Shown here piece after piece: positions 20,369 to 64,000 of a stretch of 64,000 bases of DNA. The notes beneath the pieces are model-generated. The model saw only the letters and a list, made by a program, of their open reading frames with translations, made no database searches and had not been told where the DNA came from. The stretch covers positions 193,075 through 257,074 of the forward strand of contig CAWIYK010000006.1 of assembly GCA_963840275.1 (NCBI GenBank), given 5' to 3'. A program made the position numbers and the translations under genes. Numbering within the stretch: the stretch's first letter is position 1; every line of letters begins with the position of its first letter. The stretch is from an uncultured Actinomycetota bacterium (GTDB lineage: Bacteria > Actinomycetota > Actinomycetes > Mycobacteriales > Pseudonocardiaceae).

Positions 20369-20624
20369 GCCGCGGGCGTTCCGCACAGGGAGCGCACAAC
20401 GGCCTGCTAACAGTTGGTTTCTTCGTGTTGGGCGACGTGCGCCCTGTGGTTGTCTTGGCGCGCGCGAACATGCGCCGCACCTGGGGGAACGATGGAAGAC
20501 AACGACATACCGGCGCCGCCGTCCGAGCCACCGCCCCCGATGCCGGCCGGGTCCACCCTCGCCGCGGTCCTGCTCAACCTCACCGGACTCGGCCTCGGCT
20601 ACGGCTATCTCCGGCAGCCGGCTG

Positions 20625-47904: not shown

Positions 47905-47905
47905 G

Positions 47906-48103
47906 ATGCCGGGTCGACGTGCTCCGCGCACCGTGCCGACCGCCGTGGCGGCCCTCGCCGTCGGCGTGTCCGAGACGACCATCAGGCAGTGGGTCTACCG
48001 GGGCAAGCTCACCAGGTACGGCACCCCACGCCACGCCGAGTTCGACATCGAGGAGCTGACCGCGCACGCCGAGCGGCTGCACGGCGGGTCGACGCGGTCC
48101 TAG
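47906..48103 (+). CDS. Excisionase/MerR-like small HTH protein
   Basis: 65 aa reading TAVAALAVGVSETTIRQWVYRGKLTRYGTPRHAEFDIEEL, the Xis-type helix-turn-helix pattern. Confidence 0.6.
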   Translation: MPGRRAPRTVPTAVAALAVGVSETTIRQWVYRGKLTRYGTPRHAEFDIEELTAHAERLHGGSTRS

Positions 48104-49506: not shown

Positions 49507-49568
49507 GGCCGAAGGCTACCTTCCTGTCCCGCACGGCCGTCATGCGCCTGTCACCCGGTGTCACCCGG

Positions 49569-51458
49569 TCAGCGCAGCGGCCAGCTGTCGAAGTGCCCCC
49601 TTGTGACCACGAGGACGTCGTCCTCTATCAGCTGCTCGACCGGTCGCCCGGACGCCGCCAGTCGCTTTGCGACGAGCTCGGCGTGCCGGTCGCGGGCGTC
49701 TCGCGGCAACGGAACGGAACCGACCTCGGCGAGCCGGACGGCGCCGGAACGGTCCCGGACCGACACGACCTGCCCGCGGTTCCACACGCTCGGCGAGAAC
49801 GGGACGTCGAGATAGCCGAGCTCGATCGCCCGTTCGACCGCGAGGCCGAAGTCGCCCTCCCCCGCTTTCAGCGCGGCGTCGAGGACGGCCCGTGCCTCCA
49901 CGGTGATCAGCTCCACCTCCTCCGCGACCCCCTCGATCTGCCGGGTCGAGCCCCGAGCGGCCGCCAGCGCCCCGCGGACGAGCTGCACGCTCTCCGCGTT
50001 CTCCTCGGCGGTCGGGATCCGCCGCGCCTCGACGTGCGTCTTGACCATCAGCCGCGTGGCGCCGCTGTGCCCGGCCGTCGTCGCGGAGCCCCGCAGCAGC
50101 TCCCTCGACTTGTCCTGGTCGGTGGGGAACGCGCCCATGTACTGGTGGAACACGGTGTGCACGGCGACGTCCGCGAAGGAGAAGTCGTCGAGGTACTGGC
50201 GGGCGACGGCACGCATCGCCTGTATCGCCGCGACGTCCTGGGCGTGGTTGCCCTGCTCGGCGTAGCCGAGGGACACCGACTTCACCCCGCCTTCCGCGGC
50301 CAGCAACGCTTCCAGCACGTTGGCCACCACCGCGACGAACGGCGGCACGAGGCTCGCCGTGAGCACGCCGAAGAACTCGCGGTCGATGACGTGGCCGAAC
50401 CGCTCGTGGTAGGACCCGGCCAGGCGGTCGACGTACCGCCACCGCGCGACCGACTGACGGGGCGCGTAGTCGCGGTAGTAGGGAAGGTTGTAGGTGATCG
50501 CCCCTCCCTCGAACGCGGCGACCCCGCCCGCGAACGAGATCTCCGCGAGCAGCCGCGGGTCTCTTGTGGAGTGACGGACCTGCATGGGCACGTCCCGGAA
50601 CTCACCGGTGATCGCGAGGAGGTCCGCCACGCCGTGGTTGACCATCGGATAACCGTTGAGTCCCTGTCCCGGGGTGCGCCGGGTGGCCAGCTCCTTCAGC
50701 GCGATCTCGACGTCCTCGTAGGCGTTGTTCCTGGTGAGGGAGTCGATCTGGAACGAGAGGACGTCGGCGCCCGCACGCCGCAGCTGGTGGAACAGCGAGC
50801 GCTGGTCGACCGCGTTCGGCACCCCGCAACGGGGATGGACCAGGGTGACGCCGTCCTCGTCGGCCGCCTGCTGGGCCGCGGCGAGCGTCGGCCGGGACGC
50901 CAGGGCGCTCGCCGCGCGCGCGAAGTCCTGTGCCTCCGCGCCGGTGTGCCACTGCATCAGGACTTCCTCGCGCTGCTCGGCGAACGGCGCGACGTCGACG
51001 TCGGGCGGGGCCGACCGCGCCGGTGCCGGCTGGTCGGCGACCGCGACCCCGGACGGGACGGCGTCGCCGAGGTCGTGCTCGAGGGCGGCCAGCACGGTCG
51101 GCAGCTCGACGAAGCCGTTGAAGACGCGCGTGAAGCCGAGCCGACCGAGGTCGGTCATCGCCTCGTCGTCCTTGGTCACGGAGGGGTTGCCGCCCAGGTA
51201 CCACACGCCGCCGTCGACTCCGAGCTCCGCCCGCATCGCCGGGAGGTCACGCAGGTAGTGCCAGGCGTGTCCGTCCATGTTGGACACGAGCACGGCGTCC
51301 GCGCCGACCGCGGCGGCACACACGTCGCCGACCGTGTTCTGCGTCGCCAGGTACCGGACCCGATAGCCGGCCCTGACCAGCATCCCGCGCAACACGATGA
51401 GCCCCACCGAGTGCGCGTCGCCGCCGACCCCGCACAGCACGATCGTCGGCGCACTCAC
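49569..51458 (-). CDS. Fused B12-dependent glutamate (methylaspartate) mutase-like protein, S-type domain plus E-type domain
   Basis: The N-terminal cobalamin domain has DxHxxG (GGDAHSVG) and YLGGN. The C-terminal part has GYPMVNHGV...MQVRHSTRDPRLLAEISFAGGVAAFEGGAITYNLPYYRDY, which is typical of the GlmE/MutE chain. The start is GTG 51458 (RBS GAGGGGAC) or TTG 51473. Confidence 0.85.
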   Translation of the reverse strand: MSAPTIVLCGVGGDAHSVGLIVLRGMLVRAGYRVRYLATQNTVGDVCAAAVGADAVLVSNMDGHAWHYLRDLPAMRAELGVDGGVWYLGGNPSVTKDDEAMTDLGRLGFTRVFNGFVELPTVLAALEHDLGDAVPSGVAVADQPAPARSAPPDVDVAPFAEQREEVLMQWHTGAEAQDFARAASALASRPTLAAAQQAADEDGVTLVHPRCGVPNAVDQRSLFHQLRRAGADVLSFQIDSLTRNNAYEDVEIALKELATRRTPGQGLNGYPMVNHGVADLLAITGEFRDVPMQVRHSTRDPRLLAEISFAGGVAAFEGGAITYNLPYYRDYAPRQSVARWRYVDRLAGSYHERFGHVIDREFFGVLTASLVPPFVAVVANVLEALLAAEGGVKSVSLGYAEQGNHAQDVAAIQAMRAVARQYLDDFSFADVAVHTVFHQYMGAFPTDQDKSRELLRGSATTAGHSGATRLMVKTHVEARRIPTAEENAESVQLVRGALAAARGSTRQIEGVAEEVELITVEARAVLDAALKAGEGDFGLAVERAIELGYLDVPFSPSVWNRGQVVSVRDRSGAVRLAEVGSVPLPRDARDRHAELVAKRLAASGRPVEQLIEDDVLVVTRGHFDSWPLR

Positions 51459-51469
51459 GACGTCCCCTC
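51454..51469. repeat. 16-nt direct repeat copy A (CTCACGACGTCCCCTC)
   Basis: It is identical to 51528-51543. On the coding strand it reads GAGGGGACGTCGTGAG, which is an RBS plus a GTGA start/stop overlap. Confidence 0.9.
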
Positions 51470-51527
51470 GCAAGCTCCGGGACGCCGCTCACGGTCGCCC
51501 TGTGACATTGGTTCGCTCGCAAGCTCG

Positions 51528-51543
51528 CTCACGACGTCCCCTC
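51528..51543. repeat. 16-nt direct repeat copy B (CTCACGACGTCCCCTC)
   Basis: See copy A. The flanking CTCGCAAGCTC is also duplicated, at 51467-51477 and 51516-51526. Confidence 0.9.
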
Positions 51544-52329
51544 CCGCGCCAGCAGCAGGGTGCGGCTCATCGGCGTCGGCTCCACAGTGGACACCGTCCG
51601 CCAGCCGTCGCGGCCGGCGTCCTCGTAGAGCAGCCGGGCGAGGCCGACCGGGGTTCGCGCCAGCACCGCGATGTCCGGTGGACCCGTCCGCGCGACCTGT
51701 TCGAGCACGGCTCGCTTGCCGGTCAGACCGTTCGCCAGGAACACCAGACCCACCTCCCGGTAGTCGAAGTGGCGGCCGTCGGCCGCGTGGGCGCGGACCG
51801 TCGTGCCCGGCCACGCGGCGCGGTGCCGGCTGAGGATCTTGTTCGCGAGACGCACGGTGACCGGGTCACGGTCGAGGGCGACGCCGCGGTCGGTCACCAC
51901 ACCGTGGTCGCCGAGCGCGATCATCGTCTCCGGGTACGCGCCACAGCCGACGACGACGGCCCGGTCGAAGGTCCGGCCGGCCAGCGTCGCCAGTTCGGCG
52001 CCGACCCCGGCGTAGCCCTCGGTGGCGAGCACGGACCCGCCCCGCTCGTGCGGATGCGACACGAGCCGGTCGCTCTGCACCCGCTCCATCTCGCGGATGT
52101 GCGCGGCCCACGGCACGGCAAGGGTCTGGCGCAGCCGGGAGAAGTCGACCGACGCCGTCACCGCACGCAGCGTCGGCTCGTCCCGCACGCTCGTCACCAC
52201 CCGCCACAGCTCGTCCATGACGTGCCGGGGCGCCGGCTGCCGCCCGTCGAGGGCGCACCGGTCGGCGAGGTCGTGGAGCGTCGCGATCAGCTCGGTCAGC
52301 TCCAGCGCGGGGCCGCTAGCGGTGCGCAT
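51529..52329 (-). CDS. SAM-binding-fold protein resembling nicotianamine synthase-like enzymes
   Basis: 266 aa from MRTASGPAL (cat at 52327-52329). It has a glycine-rich loop VVVGCGAYPET, an acidic beta-2 end VALDRD, and LVFLANGLTGK, which resembles the NAS signature VFLAALVGM..K. The family call comes from memory. Confidence 0.55.
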   Translation of the reverse strand: MRTASGPALELTELIATLHDLADRCALDGRQPAPRHVMDELWRVVTSVRDEPTLRAVTASVDFSRLRQTLAVPWAAHIREMERVQSDRLVSHPHERGGSVLATEGYAGVGAELATLAGRTFDRAVVVGCGAYPETMIALGDHGVVTDRGVALDRDPVTVRLANKILSRHRAAWPGTTVRAHAADGRHFDYREVGLVFLANGLTGKRAVLEQVARTGPPDIAVLARTPVGLARLLYEDAGRDGWRTVSTVEPTPMSRTLLLAREGTS

Positions 52330-53221
52330 GAGCCCCGCCCGTCGCCGACCGCACGCCGGGCCGTCCCGGCGCGAAGACCGCGTAGACACGCCGCAACCTG
52401 CGCTTCGAGTCGATCTCGGTGAACGGCAGCCGGCCGTGCAGGAAGCGCGCGTTGTTCCACACCAGCAGGTCGCCCCGCTCGAGCAGCACGGGGTGCTGGA
52501 ACGCCGGCGTCGCACACAGCTCGTCGAGCAGGTCCATCGCGGCGACGAGCCGGTCGGGCAGCTGCGCGCCCGCGGTGGTGTGGCCCAGCTCGATGTAGCG
52601 GCGCAGGTACCGCAGCTCGAACCGACCGTCCTGATCGGACAGGATCGCCTGTTTCCGCGTGGTGACCCCGGGTTGCTGCCCCTGGAGGTCGAAGTGGTGT
52701 GCCCGCCGCAGCTCGGCGAGGTGCCGGGGATCGTCGGCGCGCAGTGCCTCGCACAGCGCCGCGCCGTCGACCAGGACGGTCTCACCGCCGATGTCGGCCG
52801 AGGAGAGACCGAGCAGGACGGCGAAGTCCGGCGGCTGCGGCAGCAGGGTGCCGTCGGTGTGGAAACCGCCCGCGCGGCTCGTGCCGGAGTAGTGGCTGAC
52901 GGTCGCGGCCGAGGCACCCACCTCGACCGGGTACACGAGCTCCCCGGTGCGGTACTGCGGGACCGGCCGGCCGAGGGTGGTGACCAGGTTCCACGCGGCG
53001 GTGGTCAACGCGTGGTCGTCCATCCCGGCGGTGCCGAGCCGCAGCACCGCGTAGCCCGGCTCGCCGCGCACGAGGTCGAGCGCGGACGCGGCGAACGCGC
53101 GGAACTCGTCGCCGACGTCGGCCGGCGCGGTCGGCCACGCGTCCGGCGGTCGGCCGGCGGCGACCGTCCGCCCGGCCGCCTCGGCGGTGAGGGCGGCACT
53201 CATCGACAGAACAGCAGTCAT
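52316..53221 (-). CDS. TauD/TfdA-family Fe(II)/2-oxoglutarate-dependent oxygenase
   Basis: 301 aa from MTAVLSMS. The HxD facial triad is in GGFHTDG. The distal His/Arg is in WNNARFLHGRLPF. Confidence 0.85.
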   Translation of the reverse strand: MTAVLSMSAALTAEAAGRTVAAGRPPDAWPTAPADVGDEFRAFAASALDLVRGEPGYAVLRLGTAGMDDHALTTAAWNLVTTLGRPVPQYRTGELVYPVEVGASAATVSHYSGTSRAGGFHTDGTLLPQPPDFAVLLGLSSADIGGETVLVDGAALCEALRADDPRHLAELRRAHHFDLQGQQPGVTTRKQAILSDQDGRFELRYLRRYIELGHTTAGAQLPDRLVAAMDLLDELCATPAFQHPVLLERGDLLVWNNARFLHGRLPFTEIDSKRRLRRVYAVFAPGRPGVRSATGGAHAHR

Positions 53222-53241
53222 GCCGTTTCCTTTCTTGATCG

Positions 53242-54174
53242 TCACCGTCGCTCGGCGCCGGCGACGGCGAGCAACAAGCTGCCCGGACCGACGGGAGGAC
53301 TGACCGTCACGAACACGCACACGCCCGTCTCCGGCGCCAGGACCACCTCGACCTCGCGGCCGTGTGGGTCGAGGATCCGGCCGACGTGCTGTCCGGCCAC
53401 CACCTCCTGGCCCGGCTCGACGGCCGGCTCCCACCACCCCGTGGCGCCGGCGCGCAGCCAGCGGAACGTGGTCATGTGCCGCACCCGCGGCGGTGCCGGC
53501 ACGCTCGGGTCGGCCGGCAGGACACCGAGCCGGACGGCCACCCGGCGCAGGCCGAGCACGTGTGTCCCGACGGCCCGAGGGGTGACCACGCCGCAACCAC
53601 CCGCCTCCGCGATGAAGGCCGGGATGCCGGCGTCGGCCGCCGCGGCGCTGGTGCTGCCCCCGACGGTGCGCTCGTCGGCCGGCTGCGTGACGCAGATCGG
53701 CGCCCCGTACGCCTCGGCCAGGTCCCACGCGCGCTCGACGACGGGCGAGGAGTCGCACAGCGTGAACGGGCTCAGGTCCTCCGTCAGGTCGCCGGCGTGG
53801 ACATCGACGACGGCGTCGCTGTCGAGCACGAACCGCTCGAACACCAGGTCGGCCAGCCGCTCGCTGTACGTTCCCCGCGGCTCACCGGGAAAGCACCGGT
53901 TCAGGTTCTTGCCGTCGACCGGTGACACGAACGGACTGCGGGCACGGAAGGCCGCCACGTCGACCATCAGCACCGCACGGATCCGGCCGCGCACCACCCG
54001 TTCGTCCACGCCCGCCATGAACTCGCGGAGCGCGGCCATGGGGGTGTACTCGCACCCGTGCACCCCGGCGAGCAGGGTGAGGCTCGGTCCGTCCTCGGCG
54101 CCTCGCACCTCCGCGACGGGCAGCTCGTGCCCGGCGCCGAGCCACTCCGCGCGCGCGAAACCGTAAGTGGCCAC
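53242..54174 (-). CDS. Succinylglutamate desuccinylase/aspartoacylase (AstE/AspA, M14-like Zn) family deacylase
   Basis: The GTG start has GGAGGAGAA upstream. It carries LLAGVHGCEYTP (HxxE), NLNRCFPG and VVDVHAGD. Confidence 0.8.
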   Translation of the reverse strand: MATYGFARAEWLGAGHELPVAEVRGAEDGPSLTLLAGVHGCEYTPMAALREFMAGVDERVVRGRIRAVLMVDVAAFRARSPFVSPVDGKNLNRCFPGEPRGTYSERLADLVFERFVLDSDAVVDVHAGDLTEDLSPFTLCDSSPVVERAWDLAEAYGAPICVTQPADERTVGGSTSAAAADAGIPAFIAEAGGCGVVTPRAVGTHVLGLRRVAVRLGVLPADPSVPAPPRVRHMTTFRWLRAGATGWWEPAVEPGQEVVAGQHVGRILDPHGREVEVVLAPETGVCVFVTVSPPVGPGSLLLAVAGAERR

Positions 54175-54213
54175 GCGGCTTCTCCTCCGAGTCGTCGCCG
54201 CGCGGCCCTGTCC

Positions 54214-55212
54214 CTACCGCGTGGCTGCCCGCCGCAACGCCATCCCGGTGAGCAGTTCGAGAACCACCCGGTTGGCCAGCAGCGCGGTGATGTTCATCGG
54301 TTGGTCGTAGTGCGGCGACACCTCGACGATGTCCGCGCCGACCACCGGCAGCTCGGTGGCCAGCCGGCGGACGGAGTCCAGGAGCTGACGTGAGGTCAGG
54401 CCACCGGGCTCCGGCGTGCCGGTGCCCGGCGCCATCCCGGGGTCCACGACGTCGATGTCCACGGACAGGAAGACCCCGCGGGCCGGTTCCGGGCCGGACG
54501 TGGACGCGTGCGCCACGGCTTCGTCGACCACGATGTCGACCCCGCGCCGGTTCACCTCGTCCATGTAGTAGCTGCGCATGTCCCGCTCGCGCATCCAGGC
54601 GATGACGTCCGGCGGCGGCCAGTAGCCCCGGAGTCCGATTTGGACGAACCGGTGGCCGGGCACCATGCCCGACTCGATCAGCCGCCGCATCGGCGCGCCG
54701 TGTCCCATCATCTCGGCGCGCGAGTACTCCCCGGTGTCCGCGTGCGCGTCGAAGTGCACGAGCGCGACGGCGCCGGGGCCGTGGTGGCGCGCGACCGCGG
54801 TGGCGTTCGGGAGCGTGACGCTGTGGTCGCCGCCGAGGACGACCGGAATGCCGCCACGGGAGGTGATCTCGTACACGTACCGCTCGATCGACTCGAGCGA
54901 CGCCTCGATGTACCCGCGCACCATCGGGATGTCCCCGGCGTCGACCACCGGCATGGCGCGAAGCGGGTCGACGCCGGCCGACAGGTGCGGCCGCGAGCCG
55001 TCCGGTTCGAGGTAGTCCGCGTCGCGGATCGCCCTCGGCCCGAACCGGGCCCCCGGCCGGAAGCTCGTCCCCCAGTCGAACGGCGCGCCGATCACCACCA
55101 CGTCGCCGGCGGCGACCTCGTCCACCCGGCGGACCGGCACGCCGCAGAACGAGCCGCGGGAGCCGAACGGCTCCACGAACTGACCGTCGTACGGATCGAC
55201 GAATTCCGACAT
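54214..55212 (-). CDS. Arginase/agmatinase-family Mn ureohydrolase (guanidino-group hydrolase)
   Basis: All the signature motifs are present: VLGGDHSVT, HFDAHADT, SVDIDVVDP and GADIVEVSP. Confidence 0.9.
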   Translation of the reverse strand: MSEFVDPYDGQFVEPFGSRGSFCGVPVRRVDEVAAGDVVVIGAPFDWGTSFRPGARFGPRAIRDADYLEPDGSRPHLSAGVDPLRAMPVVDAGDIPMVRGYIEASLESIERYVYEITSRGGIPVVLGGDHSVTLPNATAVARHHGPGAVALVHFDAHADTGEYSRAEMMGHGAPMRRLIESGMVPGHRFVQIGLRGYWPPPDVIAWMRERDMRSYYMDEVNRRGVDIVVDEAVAHASTSGPEPARGVFLSVDIDVVDPGMAPGTGTPEPGGLTSRQLLDSVRRLATELPVVGADIVEVSPHYDQPMNITALLANRVVLELLTGMALRRAATR

Positions 55213-55247
55213 CCCCTGGTGCTCCGATCAGTTCGACTGCTGGCCGG

Positions 55248-58200
55248 TCATGCCGCGAGGTCACGCGGTTCGACGAGCTCGTCGAGCGCGGACCCCAGCA
55301 AGTCAAGATAGCGGGACGCCCACCCGCCGACCTGGTCCGCGGTGAACCGGTGCAGGTGGTACCAGAAGTTGAACCGGGGTTCGCCCTCCCAGATGTCGAT
55401 GATCAGGAACAGGCCGGCGATCTCGACCAGCGTCGGTGCGTCGAGCCCGGCCAGCTCCGGGTCGGACAGTGGCGCGAGGCACTCGAGCACCTCGACGCGT
55501 GGCCGCGCGGTGACTTCCTCGCGCTGGTAGTTGTTGAACATGATGAAGGGGTCGGTGAAGTACGTGTCCTCCGGCAGGTCGTCGAACGGGGGCACGTGCG
55601 TGACCAGGTCGACGGGCGGGTAGGCGCACCGCTCGTTGATGGCGGCGACCAGGCGGTTGCACAGCCTCGCCAGCTCGCCGACGGGACGGTCGGTGCTGGG
55701 CACCGAGATGGGGAACGGCGCCACGAACGGCCCGATGGTCCTGGCGAAGCGCTCGTCCGACCGCCCGGTCACGATGGTCCCGACCGTGACGTCCGGCCTA
55801 CCGCTCAGCTCGGCGACCAACCGCAGGTACACCGCGCACAGCAGGGCGAAAGGCGACACGTTCGCCTGCTGCGCGGCGTCCTGCAGGCGGGGCCACAGCT
55901 CGGCCCGCACCGGCGGGGTGAGCCGACCGGACCGATGGCCCTCGGTGGCCCGGCCGCCGGAATGGCCGGGCAGCAGCGTCCGGCCGGGTCCCGTGGCATG
56001 CAGGCCGGTGAAGAACGCCCGCTCGACGACGACGTCGCCGGCGAGATAGTCGGTCTGCCAGCGCACGAACTCGCCGTACTGCGTCGGCACGTCGGCCAGC
56101 GGCGGCTCCCCGGCCACCGCCCGCCGATAGCTCTCCCTGAGCTCGTCGACGAACACCGAGACGGACACGCCGTCGAACTCGAGGTGCTGGCTGGACAACA
56201 GGACGAGGAACCGTCCTTCGTCCAGCCGGACCGCGCGGATCGTCCACGGCACCGAGGTCGCCGGGTCCGGCATGTCCTCGCGGGCCGCCTGTCCGAGCTC
56301 GGCCAGCCGCTCGGCCCGGCCCGGCATCGGCAGGTCCGCGAGGTCGACGAACAGCACGTCGTCGGCCGGCAGTGCCTCCTCGACCGGCAGCAGGTGCGCG
56401 GCGTCCTCGTCGAAGCGACAGCGCAGCACGTCGTGGCGGCCGACCACGGTCGCGAGCGCGTCGCGAAACGCCGTGCGGTCCAACGCGGCCTCGAACATGA
56501 TCGGCGTGACGAGCTGGCCGTAGCCGATGCGTCGGAGCATCAGCCAGCGGCGCTGCTGGGTGGACAGCGGCAGCGTCTCCGACGTGGTCGTCGGTCGCGA
56601 CACCGGCTCGACCCCTGGCGCCGCACGCCGCGCCGAGGTCCGCCACCGGTCGGTCAGCACACCGGTGTCCAGGTACTCGGCGATCGCCGAGATGGACGGG
56701 TGCTGGAAGCAGAGCGTGGTCGGCAGCTGGCAGTCCAAAGTGGACTGGAGCCGGTTGCGGAGCTGGATCGCCGACAGCGAGTCCATGCCCAGCCGGACCA
56801 GGTGCTCGTCGTCCTCGGCGGCGGCCACGCCGAGCAGCTGTCCCGCCAGCTCCCGCACGTGGTCGAGGATCAGCTCACGACGAGGCTCCCCTGCCGCGCC
56901 GGCGATCCGGTCGCCGACGGTCTCCTCCTGGGGCGGTGCCGTCTCCTCGTCGGTGACCTCGGTGAAGAACGGATCGCCGTGCAGACCGTGCCAGCGCAGG
57001 AATGTCGGCCAGCGCGTCGGCAGGATCCCGACCTGGGCGGCGGTCCCGGCGAGCAGGTGGTCGAACGCGGCCGCGCCCTGGGACGCGGAGAAGGCGCCCA
57101 TGCCGCTGCGTTCGATCTGCGCCATCGTGCCGGCCTGGTCGGCGAGGAAGCCCGCGCCGGCCCAGGCGCCCCAGTTGACCGCGACCGCCGGCCTGCCGTT
57201 CGCGCGCCGGTGGTGGGCCAGTGCGTCGAGGAAGGTGTTCGCGGCCGCGTAGTTCGCCTGACCGGAGTTGCCCACGAGCGCGGTCGCCGAGGAGAAGTAC
57301 AGGCAGAAGTCGAGGTCGTGACCGCGCTCCCGGCACCACACGTGCAGGTTCCACGCGCCCTGGGCCTTCGGGGCGAACACCGGGCCGAACCGCGTCCAGT
57401 CGAGGCTGCGCAGCACGCCGTCGTCCAGGATCGCGGCCGTGTGCACCACTCCCCGCAGTGGCACGCCGAGTTCCGCGATCCGGTCGAACAGTCCGGCGAC
57501 CGCGCCCTGGTCGGCGATGTCGGCCCGCTCGACCACGACTCTCGTTCCCCGCGCGCGCATCCGGTCGAGGCGTTCGGCGACCTCCGCCGTCGGCGCGCCG
57601 CGGCCGACCAGCACCACCGTGCCGGCGCCGGCGGCGGAAAGGCGTTCCGCGGCGAGCACCCCGAGTCCGCGCACACCGCCGACCACGAGGTAGCACGCGT
57701 CGGCGCGCAGCCGTGCCGGCTGGTCGGCGGCCGGTGCCCGCACGAGGCGGCGCACGTGACGCACCCCGGCGCGCAGGGCCACCTCCCGCTCGCCACCGAC
57801 GCCGTCCAGCTCGCCGAGCAGCTCTGCCGCCCGCGCCGCCGGGTCGTCGACACCGTCGAGGTCGACCCGGACGAACGACAGCTCGGGGTGTTCCATCGCG
57901 GCGATCTTCGCGAGACCCCACAGTGGCGCCTGCGCGACACCGTCCGCCCGGTCGGACTCGCCGACCACGTGGACGTTGCTGGTGACGAGCACCAGCGCCG
58001 GTCGCGCGTCGTCGTCGCGCGCGGCGAGCGCCTTGACCAGCTCCACGACGCTGGCCGCACCGGTCGCCGCAGCCGCCACGACGCTGTCGGGCGCGGCGGC
58101 GAGCGCCGCGGTGCTGTCCGGGAGGGCCGGCGTCTCGAGGCTCCACAGGTGGACCACGCCCTCGATCGGGCCCGGGACGGTGTCGAGCAGCTCGCCCGCG

Positions 58201-61040
58201 AACCCCTCTTCCCTGCGCACGACCACGCACGGCCGGCCGTCGGAGCGGAGCCGGTCGGCCACGGCGTCCCCGATGCCGTACCGGTCGGCGAACACGATGA
58301 CCGTGCCCCGGGTCGGCTCCGCGTCGGGTCCCCGACGCGGGGCCGGCGCGGGTCGCCAGACCGGCTCGTGCACCAGGCTCCGCCAGTCCTCGGTCGGCCG
58401 TGGCGGCGCGGCCGGCTCGCGGTCCGGCGCGTCGATCCAGTAGCGCCGACGCTGGAACGGGTAGGTCGGCAGGTGGAGCCTGCGGCGCTGCTCCGGACCG
58501 GACACCGCCGCCCAGTCGATGTCGGCGCCGAGCTCGTAGAGCCGACCCAGCGCCGTGCCCAGCTCGGCCCAGTCGGGGCGGCCCGGCCGCAGGCTGGGCA
58601 GCCATGGCCCGGGATGGTCGGGAAGTACCGCGCCGGCCATCCCGAGGAGCACCGGCACGGAACCGATCTCCACGAACGCGTCGGCCCCGGCGGCGGCGAC
58701 CGAGCGGACACCCGTGGCGAAGCGCACCGGTTCGCGCAGCTGGCGCCGCCAGTACCCGCTGGTGCCGATCAGGTCGCCGATCAGCTCGCCGGTCACGTCC
58801 GACACGATCGGCGACCGGGGCGCGCCCATCGTGCAGAGGCCCACCTCGTGCTCGAACTCGTCGAGTACGCCGTCCACGTCCGGGGAGTGCCCGGCACCGC
58901 CGTAGCCGAGGTCCTTGACCTGGATCCCCCGAGCGTCCAGCCGGGCGCCGAGGTCGCGCAGCGCGTCCGCCCGGCCGGCGACCACGGTGTTCGCCGGCCC
59001 GTTCGACGCCGCCACGGACACCGCGCCCGCGTAGCGCGCGATCTCCTCCCCCGCGTCGTGTTCGCCGAGGCCGACGGCCATCATGGCGCCGCCGTCGGGC
59101 AGCGTGGACAGCAACCGGGCGCGGGTGGCGACGAGGTGCGCGCCGGTGGCGATGTCGAAGACCCCGGCCGCGCAGGCGGCGGCGAACTCGCCGAGGCTGT
59201 GGCCGAGCACCGCGGCCGGCTCGACACCCCACGACCGCCACAGTTCGACCAGGCCGAGCTGCACCGCGAACTGAGCGGGCTGCGCACGCGCCAGCCAGCT
59301 CGTCCGATCGCCTTCGTGCTCTCCCCCGTACAGCACCTCCGCCGCGGTCACGCCCAGCTCGTCCCGGTACACCGCCGAGCAGAGGTCGACGGTCTCGCGG
59401 AACACCGGTGACGTCCGGTACAGCGTCGCGCCGACGCCGGCGATGTCCGCCCGGTACCCGGTGAACAGCATGGCGACCCGCGGGGGCGTGAGATCCCCAC
59501 CGCCGGTCGACGGACGGCCGGCCAGCTCGGCCGCGGCCCGCCGCGGTGAGTCGGCGACCACCGCGGCGCGGTACTCGTGGTGGCGCCGACCGGTGTTCGC
59601 CGAGTTGGCGACGTCCGCGAGGTCCTGCTCCGGGTGGTCCACGAGGTGCTGGCGGTACCGGGCGGTGAGGTCCCGCAGCGCGGCCGGCGTGCGGGCGCTG
59701 AGCGTCAGCACCTGCCAGTCGCGCTCGGCGGCGGGCACCGCCGGGAGCGCCGGTGGTTCCTCGAGCACCACGTGGGCGTTGGTGCCGCCGAGCCCGAACG
59801 CGCTCACGCCGGCACGGCGCGGGGCGTCGACCGGGCTGGGCCAGTCCCGCAGGCTGGTGTTGACGAAGAACGGGGAGTCCGCGAACCCGATCCGCGGGTT
59901 CGGTTCGGTGAAGTGCAGGCTCGGCGGGAGCTGGCGGTGCCGGAGGGCGAACACCGCCTTGATCAGGCTGGCCATGCCGGCGGCCCAGCCGAGGTGCCCG
60001 ATGTTGGTCTTCACCGACCCGATGGCGCAGCTGGCGCCGGGCGCCGAGCCGAACGCCCTGGTGAGCGCCTCGATCTCGATCGGGTCGCCCAGGGCGGTGC
60101 CGGTGCCGTGCGTCTCGACGTAGCCGACCGTCTCCGCGGGCACCTCGGCGACCCGGAGGGCTTCGGCGACCACCGCCGCCTGACCGCTCACGCCGGGGGC
60201 GGTCATCCCGACCTTCCGGGCCCCGTCGTTGTTGACGGCCGTGCCCTTGATGACGGCGTAGACCGGGTCCCCGTCGGCCACCGCCTCGGCGAGCGGCTTC
60301 AGCGCCACGACCCCGACGCCGCTGCCGAACACCGTGCCGTCGGCACGTGCGTCGAAGGCACGGCAGTAGCCGTCCGACGAGAACACCATGCCGGACTCGT
60401 ACAGGTAGGAGGAGAGCTGGGGCACCGGGACGTTGGCCGCGCCGGCCAGCGCCAGGTCGCACTCGCCGGCGAGCAGGGCCTGGCACGCGAAGTGCACGGC
60501 GTACAGCGAGGTCGCGCAGGCCGCCTGGAGGTTCACGCTCGGGCCGCGGAGGTCGAGCTTGTAGGAGGTGCGGCTGGTGAGGAAGTCCTTGTCCGAGGCG
60601 ATCAGCAGCTGGAGCTCGGCCGTCGAGTCGAGCATCGTCCGGTCCGGCCGCCAGTCGTCGGCGTGCACGTTGTTGATGAGGTAGCTGCTCGGTCCGGTGC
60701 CGCCGTAGACGCCAACGGCCCCCGGATAGGCGCTGCCGTCGTACCCGGCGTCCTCCAGCGCCTCCCAGGAGCATTCGAGGAAGAGCCGGTGCTGCGGGTC
60801 GAGCCGCTCCGCCTCGCGCGTGCCGAAGCCGAAGAACTCGGCGTCGAACCCCTCGATGTCGGTGAGCAGGCCGCCGGCCCTGATCGCCCCGTCCGCACCG
60901 GACTCGTGCCGGGTGATCGAGTCGACGCCGTCCCGGACGTTGCGCCAGAACGCCGACGGATCGCCGGCCCCCGGGAAGCGACAGGCCATGCCGATGATCG
61001 CGATGTCGTTGTCCCGCACCGGCATCCCGGTCTCGTTCAT
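55248..61040 (-). CDS. Type I PKS module with terminal condensation domain (KS-AT-KR-ACP-C), 1930 aa
   Basis: Starts MNETGMPVRDNDIAIIGMACRFPG. The ATG overlaps the upstream stop (ATGA at 61037-61040). Domain motifs are listed in the sub-features. There is no DH, ER or TE. Confidence 0.95.
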   Translation of the reverse strand: MNETGMPVRDNDIAIIGMACRFPGAGDPSAFWRNVRDGVDSITRHESGADGAIRAGGLLTDIEGFDAEFFGFGTREAERLDPQHRLFLECSWEALEDAGYDGSAYPGAVGVYGGTGPSSYLINNVHADDWRPDRTMLDSTAELQLLIASDKDFLTSRTSYKLDLRGPSVNLQAACATSLYAVHFACQALLAGECDLALAGAANVPVPQLSSYLYESGMVFSSDGYCRAFDARADGTVFGSGVGVVALKPLAEAVADGDPVYAVIKGTAVNNDGARKVGMTAPGVSGQAAVVAEALRVAEVPAETVGYVETHGTGTALGDPIEIEALTRAFGSAPGASCAIGSVKTNIGHLGWAAGMASLIKAVFALRHRQLPPSLHFTEPNPRIGFADSPFFVNTSLRDWPSPVDAPRRAGVSAFGLGGTNAHVVLEEPPALPAVPAAERDWQVLTLSARTPAALRDLTARYRQHLVDHPEQDLADVANSANTGRRHHEYRAAVVADSPRRAAAELAGRPSTGGGDLTPPRVAMLFTGYRADIAGVGATLYRTSPVFRETVDLCSAVYRDELGVTAAEVLYGGEHEGDRTSWLARAQPAQFAVQLGLVELWRSWGVEPAAVLGHSLGEFAAACAAGVFDIATGAHLVATRARLLSTLPDGGAMMAVGLGEHDAGEEIARYAGAVSVAASNGPANTVVAGRADALRDLGARLDARGIQVKDLGYGGAGHSPDVDGVLDEFEHEVGLCTMGAPRSPIVSDVTGELIGDLIGTSGYWRRQLREPVRFATGVRSVAAAGADAFVEIGSVPVLLGMAGAVLPDHPGPWLPSLRPGRPDWAELGTALGRLYELGADIDWAAVSGPEQRRRLHLPTYPFQRRRYWIDAPDREPAAPPRPTEDWRSLVHEPVWRPAPAPRRGPDAEPTRGTVIVFADRYGIGDAVADRLRSDGRPCVVVRREEGFAGELLDTVPGPIEGVVHLWSLETPALPDSTAALAAAPDSVVAAAATGAASVVELVKALAARDDDARPALVLVTSNVHVVGESDRADGVAQAPLWGLAKIAAMEHPELSFVRVDLDGVDDPAARAAELLGELDGVGGEREVALRAGVRHVRRLVRAPAADQPARLRADACYLVVGGVRGLGVLAAERLSAAGAGTVVLVGRGAPTAEVAERLDRMRARGTRVVVERADIADQGAVAGLFDRIAELGVPLRGVVHTAAILDDGVLRSLDWTRFGPVFAPKAQGAWNLHVWCRERGHDLDFCLYFSSATALVGNSGQANYAAANTFLDALAHHRRANGRPAVAVNWGAWAGAGFLADQAGTMAQIERSGMGAFSASQGAAAFDHLLAGTAAQVGILPTRWPTFLRWHGLHGDPFFTEVTDEETAPPQEETVGDRIAGAAGEPRRELILDHVRELAGQLLGVAAAEDDEHLVRLGMDSLSAIQLRNRLQSTLDCQLPTTLCFQHPSISAIAEYLDTGVLTDRWRTSARRAAPGVEPVSRPTTTSETLPLSTQQRRWLMLRRIGYGQLVTPIMFEAALDRTAFRDALATVVGRHDVLRCRFDEDAAHLLPVEEALPADDVLFVDLADLPMPGRAERLAELGQAAREDMPDPATSVPWTIRAVRLDEGRFLVLLSSQHLEFDGVSVSVFVDELRESYRRAVAGEPPLADVPTQYGEFVRWQTDYLAGDVVVERAFFTGLHATGPGRTLLPGHSGGRATEGHRSGRLTPPVRAELWPRLQDAAQQANVSPFALLCAVYLRLVAELSGRPDVTVGTIVTGRSDERFARTIGPFVAPFPISVPSTDRPVGELARLCNRLVAAINERCAYPPVDLVTHVPPFDDLPEDTYFTDPFIMFNNYQREEVTARPRVEVLECLAPLSDPELAGLDAPTLVEIAGLFLIIDIWEGEPRFNFWYHLHRFTADQVGGWASRYLDLLGSALDELVEPRDLAA
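55266..56579 (-). other. C-terminal condensation domain (approx. residues 1488-1925)
   Basis: SSQHLEFDGVS is a variant of HHxxxDG that retains the second His. It is about 430 aa, the typical C-domain length. Confidence 0.75.
56661..56888 (-). other. ACP domain (approx. residues 1385-1460)
   Basis: LGMDSLSAIQL carries the phosphopantetheine Ser1421. Confidence 0.85.
57156..57698 (-). other. KR catalytic subdomain (approx. residues 1115-1295)
   Basis: The NADPH site is VVGGVRGLG. An LDD motif lies at 1205-1207. The catalytic residues are in SSATALVGNSGQANYAAAN. Confidence 0.85.
58461..59480 (-). other. AT domain (approx. residues 521-860)
   Basis: GHSLGE occupies residues 613-618. The specificity motif position reads GAGH (715-718) instead of HAFH or YASH. 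Confidence 0.85.
59751..61013 (-). other. KS domain (approx. residues 10-430)
   Basis: The active-site Cys is in QAACATSL (Cys175, codon 60516-60518). His residues are in ETHGTGT and KTNIGHL. Confidence 0.9.
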
Positions 61041-62944
61041 CCCGCCCGCCTCGTCTCGTCCTGCCTGGCCAGCAAGCGGGTCCGCCGATCCGGGCGCCGC
61101 AGCACCCGCCGGTCGCGACCGTCCGGGGCCGCGTCGGCTCCCGGCGCGTCGATCCGAGCCGCCAGCGACCGGACGGTCGGGTGCTCGAACAGGGCGACCG
61201 CCGGCAGCGTGGTCCCCATCCTGGTGGTCATCGTGGTGGTCAGCGCACGGTGGACGTAGGTGACGAGCAGCGAGCTGCCGCCCAGCTCGAAGAAGTTGTC
61301 GAGCACCCCGACCTCCCGCAGCCGCAACGCCTCCCGCCACACCTCGGCGACCGCGCGCTCGGTGTCGGTCGCGGGCGGCACCATGGGGGTGTCCAGGGTC
61401 GGGCGGTCGTTGGAGACGAGCGGCAGACCCGCGCGGTCGATCTTCCCGTTGGGCGACAACGGCATCTCCGCCACGCGCACGAAGCTCTGCGGCACCATGT
61501 ACTCCGGGAGCCGGTCCGCGAGGTAGGCGTGCCAGCTCGGCTCGAACAACCGGAACACGCCGTCCGCACGGTCCGCCCCGCCGAGGACGACGTAGGCGAC
61601 GAGACGTCGCTGTCCGGCCGCGTCCTCGTCGGTGAGCACCGCGCACTCGGTGACGTCGGGATGCTGTGCCAGCGCCGCCTCGACCTCACCCAGCTCGACC
61701 CGGTGCCCCCGGATCTTGACCTGGCGGTCGGTCCGGCCGAGGAACTCGAGCGCTCCCAGCCCGTCGTACCGGACCCGGTCGCCGGTGCGGTAGAGCCGGG
61801 CGCCGGTGGGGCCGGGCGCGAACCGCTCGTCGGTGAGGTCGGGCCGCCCGAGGTACCCGTCGGCGAGTCCCGGGCCACCGATGTAGAGCTGACCGGGCTG
61901 TCCCGGCGACACCGGGCGGCCCTCGTCGTCGAGCACGTGGGCGTCCACGTGCGGCAGCGGGGGGCCGATCGGGGGCAGGTCCGGCCAGTCCGCCGGCGGA
62001 CCGGTCAGCTCGTGCACGGTGACCACGTGCGTCTCGGTCGGCCCGTAGTGGTTGAAGAGCCGGCACCACGGCATGCGGGCGAACCAGTCGCGGATCGCGG
62101 GCGTGACGCGCAGCTGGTCGCCGAGCACCACCACGGTCCGCAGGTCGGGCAGGGGCGACTCGGCCGCCGCGGCCAGGACGGGCAGCAGCACGGTCGGCAC
62201 GAAGAACCGGCCGACCCGCTCGTCGGCGAGCAGGCGCAGCAACCCGTTCGCGTCGTGCCGCTGGCCCTCGTCGAGCAGCAACAGGGTGCCGCCGTTGCAC
62301 AGGGTGGAGTAGATCTCCTGCACCGACACGTCGAAGCTGATCGGCGCGAACTGGAGCGTGGTGACGCCGGTCTGCGGCCCGTCGGCGCTCCGGTGCCAGT
62401 CGACGAGCGTGCCGAAGGCGCCATGGCTCATGACGACGCCCTTGGGTGTTCCCGTCGAGCCGGAGGTGTAGATCAGGTACAGCGGGTCCCGCTGCCTCGG
62501 GTGCGGCGGCACTGCCGGGGCCGCGCCGTCCTCGCTCGCCACGAGGTCCTCGACGAGCAAGGTCGTCGGGCCGTCGCCGGCACTGTGCGCGGTGGCCGCG
62601 CGGCACGTGAGCACCGCACGCGCACCCGAGTCGGCCAGCATGAGCTTGCGGCGGACCTCCGGGTAGTCGGCGTCGAGCGGTAGGCACGCCGCGCCGGACC
62701 AGGCGATGCCGAGCAACCCGACGATCAGGTCGACGCCGCGCGGCATGCTCAGCGCCACCGGCTCCGACCCGAGACCGGCGCGACGCAAGCCCGCCGCCAC
62801 CCGCCCGGCGCGACGCACGAGCTCGCGATAGGTCACCTCGGTGGTGCCGTGGCGCAGTGCGACCACGTCCGGGTGTGCCCGCGCGACCTCGTCGATCATC
62901 CGCGGCAGCAGGCTCGGCGCCTCCCCCGGCGACCCGCCGCTCAC
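61037..62944 (-). CDS. Stand-alone NRPS loading didomain (A-T), 635 aa
   Basis: The GTG (cac at 62942-62944) overlaps the methyltransferase stop (GTGA). Core motifs are LIYTSGSTGTPKGV, FDVSVQE, NHYGPTE, YRTGD and GRTDRQVKIRG. The T domain has FFELGGSSLL. Confidence 0.9.
   Translation of the reverse strand: MSGGSPGEAPSLLPRMIDEVARAHPDVVALRHGTTEVTYRELVRRAGRVAAGLRRAGLGSEPVALSMPRGVDLIVGLLGIAWSGAACLPLDADYPEVRRKLMLADSGARAVLTCRAATAHSAGDGPTTLLVEDLVASEDGAAPAVPPHPRQRDPLYLIYTSGSTGTPKGVVMSHGAFGTLVDWHRSADGPQTGVTTLQFAPISFDVSVQEIYSTLCNGGTLLLLDEGQRHDANGLLRLLADERVGRFFVPTVLLPVLAAAAESPLPDLRTVVVLGDQLRVTPAIRDWFARMPWCRLFNHYGPTETHVVTVHELTGPPADWPDLPPIGPPLPHVDAHVLDDEGRPVSPGQPGQLYIGGPGLADGYLGRPDLTDERFAPGPTGARLYRTGDRVRYDGLGALEFLGRTDRQVKIRGHRVELGEVEAALAQHPDVTECAVLTDEDAAGQRRLVAYVVLGGADRADGVFRLFEPSWHAYLADRLPEYMVPQSFVRVAEMPLSPNGKIDRAGLPLVSNDRPTLDTPMVPPATDTERAVAEVWREALRLREVGVLDNFFELGGSSLLVTYVHRALTTTMTTRMGTTLPAVALFEHPTVRSLAARIDAPGADAAPDGRDRRVLRRPDRRTRLLARQDETRRAG
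61160..61363 (-). other. Thiolation (PCP) domain (approx. residues 528-595)
   Basis: The GGSS motif has its Ser557 codon at 61274-61276 and Ser558 as the likely carrier serine. Confidence 0.8.
61430..62911 (-). other. Adenylation domain (approx. residues 12-505)
   Basis: The specificity residues, read by eye against GrsA-PheA numbering, are D V Q F V L H V V K. Confidence 0.8.
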
Positions 62945-63987
62945 CGCGCCCGCCGGAGCAGGTAGCCGATCTCCAGGCCGGTGGAGTCGACGTTGTCGTC
63001 GGGATGCCCCACAGCGACGACCTCCAGACCGGCCTCGTGGAAGAGCTCCTCCCAGAACTCGCGGCGCTCGAGGCGCTGCTCGGTCAGCTCGTGCAGCAGG
63101 TAGTACGGGTTGTAGTAGGCGAGCCCGAGCCCGTGGCGCATCACCGACGGCTCGTCCGCGCGGTAGTCGACCTCGATGACCAGCCAGTGCGCGTCGGGGT
63201 GCCGCCGCACGGTCTCCCGCAGCATGGCCACGATCGGCTCCCGGCCGCGCTGCTCGAGCACCTCCTGGAGCACGAAGGCGGTGAGGAAGCACAGGTTGCC
63301 GTGCGCCGGCAGGTCGAGGTCGACGACGTCGAGCGCTCCGGCCTGGTGCAGGTCGACCCGATCGGCGAGGCCCTCGCGCTCGATCCGCGCCCGCGCGAGG
63401 TCGAAACCGCCGGCGTCGGGTTCGAGACCGACGCCGGTGACGCCGGGCAGCGACCGGCAGAGGGCGGCGAGGAACCCTGCGTCACCGCAGCCGAGGTCGA
63501 CGACCGTGGTGTGGTCGGTCTCGAGCCGGCCGATCAGCCGTTCCGCGAGCGGCAGCGCGTCGTAGGCGCTGATCCCGCAGCTGCCGGCACCGACGTCGCC
63601 CCCGTTCCGGCCGGCGTAGGGCGCGTCGGCGCGCAGGGTGTCGCCGAGCTGGGCGAAGGTGCTGGTGTAGCCGCCGACCAGCAGCTTGTACCAGGCGCGG
63701 AACTCGTTGGTCTGCCTCGCCTTCGACGTCAGCCGCCAACCATCGCCGTCGGCATTGCCGTCGCAGGCGAGGAAACCCTCGTTGGCGAGGTAGCGCAGGA
63801 AGCCGCCGAGACGGGCCTCGTCCATGCCGAGCTTGCCGGCGACCGTGCTCGCCGAGAGCCCGGGGTCGGCCGCCAGCAGGTCATGGATTCCGGAGTCCAT
63901 CAGGACGAACACCGCCTGGGCGAGCGCGAAGCCCCGAACCGGTTGCAGCGCCTGGATCAGCCGCGCCTCGAAATCGGTCGCGATCAT
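62941..63987 (-). CDS. SAM-dependent methyltransferase with N-terminal winged-helix dimerisation domain
   Basis: 348 aa. The N-terminal wHTH-like region reads VAGKLGMDEARLGGFLRYLANEGFL. Motif I is VVDLGCGDAGFL and motif II is VGLEPD. It is the first gene of the array that is fully inside the window. Confidence 0.8.
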   Translation of the reverse strand: MIATDFEARLIQALQPVRGFALAQAVFVLMDSGIHDLLAADPGLSASTVAGKLGMDEARLGGFLRYLANEGFLACDGNADGDGWRLTSKARQTNEFRAWYKLLVGGYTSTFAQLGDTLRADAPYAGRNGGDVGAGSCGISAYDALPLAERLIGRLETDHTTVVDLGCGDAGFLAALCRSLPGVTGVGLEPDAGGFDLARARIEREGLADRVDLHQAGALDVVDLDLPAHGNLCFLTAFVLQEVLEQRGREPIVAMLRETVRRHPDAHWLVIEVDYRADEPSVMRHGLGLAYYNPYYLLHELTEQRLERREFWEELFHEAGLEVVAVGHPDDNVDSTGLEIGYLLRRAR

Positions 63988-64000
63988 GGGAGTGGTCCCT

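Follow-up and report, generated by a model that had tools for sequence, protein, structure and literature searches.

A putative peptide-polyketide gene cluster of an uncultured Pseudonocardiaceae bacterium, its actinomycete relatives and a proposed route to its product

Assembly lines that extend proline have been described for the detoxin/rimosamide-like (DRL) natural products, in which one malonate-type extension of proline, followed by ketoreduction, gives a detoxinine-type gamma-amino-beta-hydroxy acid, and in which a TauD gene is conserved (PMC9503745, PMC12828459, bioRxiv 10.1101/445270). These pathways employ a hybrid C-A-T-KS-KR-T-TE protein with a trans AT, and a second nonribosomal peptide synthetase (NRPS) with an ester-forming TE (PMC9503745, PMC12828459). 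Nicotianamine synthase (NAS)-like enzymes have been placed in metallophore pathways only by a 2023 review of S-adenosylmethionine (SAM) chemistry, and in MtNAS the residues Glu81 and Tyr107 deprotonate the acceptor amine (PMC10491745). The present analysis concerns a stretch of 64,000 nucleotides (the window) from an uncultured bacterium of the Pseudonocardiaceae, positions 193,075 to 257,074 of contig CAWIYK010000006.1 (assembly GCA_963840275.1), which holds a gene cluster with a hybrid NRPS-polyketide synthase (PKS), a NAS-like enzyme and a prolyl-tRNA synthetase (ProRS). The block from 48100 to 64000, together with at least 3.8 kb beyond it, is one operon-like cluster. It is read here as a small peptide-polyketide hybrid cluster of a recurrent family, with a product assembled along the route proposed below, and the balance of the evidence tips modestly towards this reading as a whole.

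The original prediction for this DNA, made from the sequence alone, had found no match to a characterised pathway. The open-access full-text literature agrees with it: texts on nicotianamine synthase and glutamate mutase, on ProRS self-resistance, on detoxins and rimosamides, and on LuxC/TauD yielded no counterpart pathway. The cluster is provisionally an orphan. Orphan NRPS-PKS clusters are common in actinomycetes, and this one is set apart from them by a recurrent unusual enzyme combination and a cluster-borne ProRS.

The assembly line and its relatives

The assembly line is encoded by two adjoining genes, for a stand-alone A-T protein and for a KS-AT-KR-ACP-C megasynthase. In the A-T protein Pfam recognises AMP-binding, AMP-binding_C and PP-binding, the phosphopantetheinyl Ser lies in GGSSL, and the A-domain specificity code, DVQFVLHVVK, is of the proline type and near the canonical proline code, as had been predicted. 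The megasynthase, of 1930 aa, comprises one PKS module fused to a terminal C domain. Its KS has an intact Cys-His-His triad (AACATS, HGTGT, NIGH), its KR carries LDD and the catalytic Tyr (NYAAAN), and its ACP has a DSL motif with the phosphopantetheinyl Ser (MDSLS). The AT carries GHSLGE, and GAGH (xAGH) in place of the usual HAFH or YASH. In the C-domain motif, QHLEFDG, the first His of HHxxxDG is replaced by Gln and the second, catalytic His is kept with the DG; the same motif is found in all five aligned homologues (L004-L008). All domain calls of the original prediction were reproduced by Pfam and NCBIfam, whose scans of the block likewise gave no TE, DH or ER, and the picture of a compact hybrid cluster with one extension module and a terminal C domain is supported.

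Homologues of the megasynthase with the same architecture and about 44-51% identity occur in about twenty clusters, many of them from Streptomyces and Kitasatospora. The gene context was read for six of these relatives, which makes seven loci with the window (Table 1). The fused mutase, TauD and a beta-lactamase-fold gene are common to L004, L005, L006 and L012, the NAS-like gene occurs in L004, L005 and L006, and AstE in L005 and L006. The grouping is more than chance, with orthologues of most genes of the set clustered in six other actinomycete genomes, and by these comparisons the window cluster is a member of a recurrent actinomycete family, not a one-off. In L012 the upstream set presumably follows another megasynthase copy beyond the locus. 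Downstream of the KS-AT-KR-ACP-C gene of that locus (1-21882) there are a TE, a truncated AMP-binding gene, a 337-aa class II aminoacyl-tRNA synthetase (aaRS)-like gene (tRNA-synt_2), a Glu-synthase/FMN enzyme and split GlmS/GlmE.

All five relatives with a stand-alone A-T have the code DVQFVAHVVK or DVQFIAHVVK, from which the window code differs by Ala to Leu at position 301. A more distant group consists of fused A-T-KS-AT-KR-ACP-C proteins of about 2550-2600 aa with the code DVLFMGIVVK. Two of its members, L007 (Kitasatospora phosalacinea) and L008 (metagenome), keep NYAAAN in the KR like the window, and their megasynthase is flanked by beta-lactamase-fold, PhyH, methyltransferase and TauD genes and by a LuxC/LuxD/LuxE fatty-acid reductase set; no known pathway matched the L007/L008 family. 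The fused homologues support the view that the stand-alone A-T primes the KS, in line with the original idea of an imino- or amino-acid starter. The gene order from A-T to PKS, with 4-nt overlaps, is kept in L004, L005, L006 and L011. This order, the coupling of translation and the fused homologues together indicate that the A-T most likely loads the KS with a proline-type starter.

On the proposed route, the A-T would activate proline or a close analogue and hand it to the KS, as its code and the fused homologues suggest. The PKS module would then add one C2-type unit, probably a substituted malonyl derived from a crotonyl-CoA carboxylase/reductase (CCR). HAFH or YASH is found in ATs specific for malonyl or methylmalonyl, and xAGH in those for bulkier extender units. 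Because of the xAGH motif and the CCR gene in the cluster, the extender is probably not plain malonyl-CoA; CCR genes occur in L005, L011 and L013 and on L001, a contig that continues the window cluster past the window edge. Given its intact motifs, the KR would deliver a gamma-amino-beta-hydroxy acyl-ACP. Since there is no TE, the terminal C domain (xHxxxDG) would free the chain by forming an amide with an amino acid. The best candidate for this acceptor would be 3-methylaspartate or a derivative, because five of the seven loci pair the megasynthase with a glutamate mutase, a conserved linkage on which this step is based.

Building-block and tailoring enzymes

The mutase is a protein of 629 aa in which a GlmS-like B12 domain is fused to GlmE (PF06368, E=1e-128, and PF02310). 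It reaches 413.9 bits with TIGR01503, the GlmE equivalog with a cut-off of 390.1; the S-subunit models match below their cut-offs, at 66 and 58 bits, and the B12-binding motif DxHxxG is present as GDAHSVG. Orthologues with 56-61% identity occur in L004, L005, L006 and L012. The protein is accordingly annotated as a putative fused B12-dependent glutamate (methylaspartate) mutase. Its linkage to the megasynthase in these four other loci favours the original suggestion of a building-block source (e.g. of 3-methylaspartate): it is fused in all four, as in the window, and in L012 a split form is present in addition. Release onto 3-methylaspartate, like the pro-drug idea of the original prediction, is inferential.

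The NAS-like protein alone gave no match in Pfam or in a search of a plasmid collection, and in a word-indexed homologue search of 5.8 billion sequences it shared 5-residue words with none but itself. An exhaustive HMMER search returned 230 relatives. The profile made from these matched MtNAS (5.4e-17) and CntL (1e-16) over the full length, and the Pfam NAS family matches 18 of 36 family members, the window protein not being one of them. With an AlphaFold (AF2) model of pLDDT 93.5, Foldseek placed CntL and MtNAS at all ranks from 1 to 12 (E about 1e-14, TM 0.62-0.73), followed after a six-log drop by generic methyltransferases at 1e-8. The catalytic Glu, E82, is nearly invariant and aligns with E81 of MtNAS (E84 of CntL), and Y107 corresponds to the Tyr of ATEGYAG. 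Profile, fold and catalytic residues bear out the original label of a nicotianamine-synthase-like SAM enzyme and argue for a true NAS/CntL-fold, SAM-dependent 3-amino-3-carboxypropyl (aminobutyrate) transferase-like protein. In the proposed route it would move the 3-amino-3-carboxypropyl group of SAM onto the amine of a building block or intermediate. The acceptor of MtNAS is glutamate, an isomer of the mutase product.

The first gene of the block had been called a winged-helix-turn-helix-type SAM methyltransferase. The methyltransferase part stands, and the more specific assignment to 2-ketoarginine C-methyltransferases replaces the generic one: the protein scores 446.3 bits with TIGR04543 (cut-off 425, equivalog level) and matches the solved MrsA structure 8r4z over its full length (residues 4-347, E=3.6e-85). 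It is a predicted enzyme of the MrsA/ArgN type, for the supply of beta-methylarginine. A class I/II pyridoxal phosphate (PLP) aminotransferase ends 36 nt upstream of it, past the window edge on L001, and would be its partner, the two together making up the known two-enzyme beta-methylarginine route. This aminotransferase has a HisC-like score. A scan of GTDB genomes with the methyltransferase had as its sole find L002 (Streptomyces sp. NPDC006872, 8913-16371), where the same two-gene cassette lies directly upstream of an unrelated multi-A-domain NRPS; the identities are 51% for the aminotransferase and 58% for the methyltransferase. Since the same pair adjoins an unrelated NRPS there, the cassette looks like a portable sub-cluster. 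Among the seven loci compared it is present only in the window cluster, and beta-methylarginine would be supplied in this variant only.

The remaining enzymes may tailor or mature the product. The ureohydrolase (PF00491, E=2e-85) scores 196.5 bits with the agmatinase model TIGR01230 (cut-off 174.3) and has a homologue with 43.5% identity in L006 (K. kazusensis). It is probably an agmatinase-like Mn enzyme that takes the amidino group off a guanidino intermediate, and proclavaminate amidinohydrolase provides an analogy for late amidino removal. The AstE/AspA protein (PF24827), with orthologues of 55-61% identity in L005 and L006, has DoeB as its best NCBIfam match, below the cut-off of that model, and is a candidate Zn amidohydrolase, a DoeB-like N-acyl-amino-acid deacylase. 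The AstE/AspA family hydrolyses N-acyl-Asp, N-acyl-Glu and N-acyl-diaminobutyrate, and by analogy the role of this member would fit the deacylation of an N-acylated unit of the Asp, Glu or diaminobutyrate type. The TauD protein (PF02668) belongs to the Fe(II)/2-oxoglutarate oxygenase family, has the HxD motif and the distal His in its translation, and has orthologues with 49-51% identity in L004, L005, L006 and L012. Mn, Zn, Fe and B12 ligand motifs are present in the translations of the block enzymes. Tailoring or maturation may also involve two products of L001, a PhyH-family oxygenase and a serine hydrolase of the beta-lactamase fold. The PhyH protein has an HxD motif (WHQDYS) and hydroxylases as its best matches, on which ground a SyrB2-type halogenase acting on the A-T was rejected.

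Layout and boundaries of the cluster

Nine consecutive minus-strand genes fill the window from 48100 to 63987 (Table 1). The G+C content of the window is about 72% throughout, and the G+C fraction at third codon positions (GC3) is 0.92-0.95 in each of the nine genes, a strong codon bias of the actinomycete type. The predicted nine-gene block thus has a strong coding signature in every gene. Start codons and junctions were read straight off the sequence. The predicted range of junctions, -14 to +62, holds for all but the NAS-to-mutase spacer, which at 70 nt lies slightly outside. The four 4-nt overlaps that had been proposed also stand in part: those at 62941-62944 and 61037-61040 are true gene junctions, and those at 51529-51532 and 51455-51458 need a 25-codon open reading frame (ORF) to be counted as a gene. 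The span had been given as 49569-64000, and the ProRS gene, though named in the prediction, falls below its start.

Table 1. Genes and repeat of the cluster in the window, and gene content of the six relatives
Feature or locus	Position	Strand	Junction (gap to upstream gene, nt) or content
MrsA/ArgN-type methyltransferase (predicted)	62941-63987	-	First gene of the nine-gene block
Stand-alone A-T	61037-62944	-	-4 (GTGA overlap)
KS-AT-KR-ACP-C	55248-61040	-	-4 (ATGA overlap)
Arginase-family ureohydrolase	54214-55212	-	+35
AstE/AspA	53242-54174	-	+39
TauD	52316-53221	-	+20
NAS-like	51529-52329	-	-14
74-nt tandem repeat	51455-51543 (wider region 51440-51543)	-	Direct repeat at 74-nt spacing
Fused GlmS-GlmE mutase (putative)	49569-51458	-	+70
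ProRS	48100-49506	-	+62; last gene of the block
L004, Streptomyces sp. HK10			KS-AT-KR-ACP-C with NAS-like, A-T, fused mutase, TauD, four ATP-grasp ligases, MFS, beta-lactamase-fold
L005, S. phaeofaciens			KS-AT-KR-ACP-C with AstE, NAS-like, A-T, mutase, TauD, CCR, FemAB-like, MFS, beta-lactamase-fold, extra NRPS parts
L006, K. kazusensis			KS-AT-KR-ACP-C with AstE, NAS-like, A-T, mutase, TauD, formyltransferase, three FemAB-like (one upstream), beta-lactamase-fold, arginase-family, ProRS
L011, S. olivaceus			KS-AT-KR-ACP-C with A-T, CCR, FemAB-like, MFS, ProRS, PanB-like, IDH-like, TauD; no mutase, no NAS-like
L012, S. tibetensis			KS-AT-KR-ACP-C; upstream fused mutase, TauD, ATP-grasp ligases, beta-lactamase-fold (L004-like); downstream TE, split GlmS/GlmE; no stand-alone A-T in view
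L013, S. achromogenes			KS-AT-KR-ACP-C with A-T, CCR, two FemAB-like, MFS, ProRS, PanB-like, IDH-like, LeuA-like; no mutase, no NAS-like

The 25-codon ORF (51455-51532) is part of the tandem repeat, whose 74-nt unit copies the last codons of the NAS-like gene, at its 3' end, and the GTGA at which stop and start meet. This junction has one extra copy in the window and two in L003 (11320-11530), a second assembly of the strain with more noise; the difference in unit number comes either from a copy-number polymorphism or from the assemblies. A 25-codon ORF that has no coding signature is present in each unit, and in the window its G+C by codon position is 0.69/0.65/0.65, i.e. without bias. With this composition, and within a tandem repeat, the ORF is probably non-coding and was rejected as a tenth gene or scaffold peptide; hence the NAS-to-mutase spacer of 70 nt. 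The two genes flanking the repeat in the window were evidently stop/start-coupled in the past.

The A-T gene starts with GTG in its overlap with the methyltransferase stop, and an alternative ATG lies at 62899. ARAGORN called a tRNA-Pro(cgg) of 94 nt inside this gene (62461-62554, plus strand), a false positive that is antisense to the coding sequence and has no Rfam tRNA match at E<=10. A similar spurious 94-nt call was obtained in L004, inside an ABC-transporter gene.

As had been predicted, the cluster runs past the window edge at 64000. L001, a 6-kb contig that is 100% identical to the window over 61777-64000, reaches 3.8 kb past the edge and adds four same-strand genes, for the PLP aminotransferase, the PhyH-family oxygenase, the beta-lactamase-fold serine hydrolase and a partial CCR. 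The part of the cluster covered upstream is therefore the window plus these 3.8 kb, and its 5' end lies farther out. At the other end ProRS is the 3' boundary of the cluster, because the genes 3' of it are convergent and unrelated to biosynthesis and the other 48 kb of the window carry ordinary chromosomal functions.

Two small plus-strand genes at 47257-48103 are convergent to ProRS; one encodes 215 aa without a family, the other 65 aa that by eye resemble an excisionase-type helix-turn-helix protein, and the 65-aa gene and ProRS overlap at their stops. The two small genes may be what is left of an integrative element where the cluster ends. Elsewhere in the window, three consecutive large plus-strand ORFs (16744-21911; about 696, 544 and 535 aa) have coding-type GC3 and no Pfam match at E<=1e-5. 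A scan of the whole window with Rfam gave nothing at gathering thresholds, and a scan for promoters and terminators was uninformative in DNA of 72% G+C.

The prolyl-tRNA synthetase, competing readings and described systems

The ProRS gene had been named and left without interpretation. Its product is of the archaeal/eukaryote type (TIGR00408, 468.8 bits, cut-off 437). Besides the window, L006, L011 and L013 have a ProRS gene at the locus edge, which makes four of seven loci, and ProRS is a recurrent, functional-looking part of the cluster family. The copies of L006, L011 and L013 are 76-81% identical among themselves across cluster sub-families, and the window copy is 60-62% identical to them. 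FemAB-like (tRNA-dependent) ligases are present in all three ProRS-bearing Streptomyces and Kitasatospora clusters, the two ATP-grasp variants (L004 and L012) have no ProRS, and L005 has a FemAB-like gene with no ProRS in view. Cluster-borne synthetases are known in immunity (BorO ThrRS, MupM IleRS) and in supply (VlmL SerRS in valanimycin). In the proposed route ProRS would be either a drug-insensitive copy of the target or a supplier of Pro-tRNA to tRNA-dependent ligases, and because of its co-occurrence with FemAB-like ligases, the pattern favours supply about as much as immunity.

A more specific form of the immunity role would be that the cluster family makes ProRS-targeting antibiotics, with the ProRS genes as drug-insensitive immunity copies, the Streptomyces and Kitasatospora ones as a tight group and the window copy as an independent one. 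This is a speculative and rather unlikely proposal, drawn from a likeness of pharmacophores: a hydroxylated pyrrolidine with a beta-oxygenated two-carbon arm, which proline, a ketide and TauD hydroxylation could provide, is that of febrifugine/halofuginone. In ProRS this plant alkaloid fills the pockets for proline and for A76 of the tRNA. The enzyme is validated as a target against parasites and fibrosis, and we know of no bacterial natural product targeting it. The recurrent ProRS gene offers a testable lead for the resistance-guided discovery of a ProRS inhibitor, and if the proposal were true, this would be the first class of bacterial natural products directed against ProRS. If ProRS merely feeds FemAB-like ligases, the cluster would be a useful example of tRNA-dependent tailoring and otherwise an ordinary orphan.

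Several observations weigh against the proposed route, every chemical step of which we infer. The closest solved relatives of the C domain are the elongation C domains of PvdL and Txo1, VibH following only at E=1e-3; the domain thus resembles elongation domains with a carrier-bound acceptor more than free-amine condensers of the VibH type, and the sole acceptor T domain in view is that of the stand-alone A-T. The catalytic Tyr of the KR is replaced by His (NHAAAN/NHSAAN) in L004, L005 and L006, at the position aligned to window residues 1264-1268. The KR domains of these three loci may be inactive and their products may carry a beta-keto group, the beta-hydroxy state then not being family-wide. 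No enzyme that would attach beta-methylarginine was found within the window and the 3.8 kb upstream. The window ProRS is closer (74-75%) to chromosomal ProRS of Crossiella and Allokutzneria, in non-cluster contexts, than to the cluster copies; no synteny was found between the window and these loci. By these identities the window ProRS was either recruited independently or is a native housekeeping gene that adjoins the cluster by chance, and chance adjacency is unlikely because ProRS recurs in related clusters.

The properties of the C domain and of the A-T, which carries the only T domain available in trans, would also suit a reversed, salinosporamide-like logic. In that case KS-AT-KR-ACP would build a short beta-hydroxyacyl chain from an acyl starter, the C domain would N-acylate prolyl-S-T on the A-T, and the beta-lactamase-fold hydrolase would release the product, in keeping with the lack of a TE and the presence of a conserved gene of the serine-hydrolase fold. 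However, the homologues fuse A-T N-terminally right before the KS, in the normal loading position, the coupled A-T-to-PKS order described above is conserved, and nothing that could prime the KS is in view, be it a loading AT/ACP, a CoA ligase or a starter C domain, so that this logic is held to be quite unlikely. An azetidine route is less probable still. Plant NAS makes an azetidine ring from SAM (within nicotianamine), and proline A domains accept azetidine-2-carboxylate (AZE) (PMC11794875, PMC10491745); the NAS-like protein might thus cyclise SAM to AZE, the A-T load it, and ProRS serve as an azetidine-discriminating protective copy. In L004, L005 and L006 the genes for the NAS-like protein and the A-T are coupled in translation, and Leu at position 301 gives the window code a narrower pocket, as such a route would have it. 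Yet an AzeJ/VioH-type assignment was rejected for want of a sequence or fold match to these proven bacterial AZE synthases: the 8RYD-8RYG series appeared neither in PDB sequence matches at E<=10 nor in profile matches at E<=1 nor in the top 50 of Foldseek. The closest structures are instead the intermolecular transferases CntL and MtNAS, whose acceptor-deprotonating Glu and Tyr are kept. ProRS is also found in two clusters that have no NAS-like gene, L011 and L013, and therefore tracks the proline-primed A-T/PKS core, not the azetidine route.

The window is alone both in its MrsA cassette and in its departure from the family A code, and its ureohydrolase gene directly follows the megasynthase gene. 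These features could be joined in a 3-methylproline starter, with beta-methylarginine converted through 3-methylornithine to 3-methylproline for the A-T by way of the cassette and the ureohydrolase. This is the most improbable of the alternatives: the bulkier pocket residue is ill-suited to a bulkier substrate, the ureohydrolase scores as agmatinase-like and not arginase-like, L006 has the arginase-family homologue and no MrsA gene, and no ornithine cyclodeaminase or pyrroline-5-carboxylate (P5C)-type reductase is in view. As for a characterised pathway that was missed, in MIBiG or in a recent paper, the many homologue clusters of the same architecture in well-studied genera would make one conceivable, as would a literature search that covered open-access text, most subscription journals lying outside it. 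The silence of the open-access full texts, the restriction of NAS-like enzymes to metallophore pathways in the 2023 review and the isolation of the NAS-like protein among 5.8 billion sequences speak against this, and we rate it as improbable as the azetidine route. The preferred reading remains a proline starter loaded by the A-T, extended once and released by the C domain. If this model is true, the product would represent a new scaffold class uniting a proline-derived gamma-amino-beta-hydroxy acid, 3-methylaspartate, a SAM-derived aminocarboxypropyl unit and, in this variant only, beta-methylarginine. The model would also extend the NAS/CntL family to a role beyond metallophore operons. A NAS-type aminocarboxypropyl transferase has not been seen before in an assembly-line pathway.

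Several parts of the cluster have described counterparts, from which they depart. With the NAS/CntL enzymes of nicotianamine, thermonicotianamine and staphylopine formation, the NAS-like protein shares the two-domain fold, the Gly-rich SAM motif (VGCGAYPET) and the catalytic Glu and Tyr. Identity is only about 16%, however, no opine dehydrogenase (CntM) or racemase partner is present, and the known members lie in metallophore operons, whereas the window gene lies in a PKS-NRPS cluster. The cassette resembles MrsA/MrsB (3-methylarginine, Pseudomonas syringae) and ArgM/ArgN (arginomycin) in its equivalog-level methyltransferase, in the full-length MrsA match and in the adjoining PLP aminotransferase. 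It differs in lying inside an NRPS-PKS operon instead of standing alone or serving a nucleoside pathway, and its aminotransferase is matched to the HisC-like family only, not specifically to MrsB or ArgM. Cluster-encoded glutamate mutases are known from friulimicin (GlmA/GlmB) and vicenistatin (VinH/VinI), with more macrolactam examples in the literature. Those systems have in common with the window an in-cluster B12 methylaspartate mutase supplying 3-methylaspartate, a role that is predicted here; in the window the S and E subunits are fused, and the downstream enzymes of the macrolactam route, of the VinN/VinO type, are absent. As with BorO, MupM and VlmL, a complete aaRS ends the operon and recurs in homologous clusters; the window copy is a ProRS.

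The DRL systems (RmoI, MirF/MirE, PipC and a TauD-type dioxygenase) come close to the core of the cluster, which has a proline-type A code, a TauD gene and a PKS module that would likewise extend proline. In DRL pathways proline is the second residue of a dipeptide and release depends on ester-forming and hydrolytic TEs, whereas the window cluster has no TE and combines a stand-alone A-T with a cis AT of the xAGH type and a C domain at the end of the megasynthase. Nothing in DRL clusters corresponds to its mutase, NAS-like, AstE, ureohydrolase and ProRS genes. Membership in the DRL family was rejected on architecture, as the DRL signature hybrid is absent. By analogy, the cluster would work like a DRL module without belonging to the DRL family.

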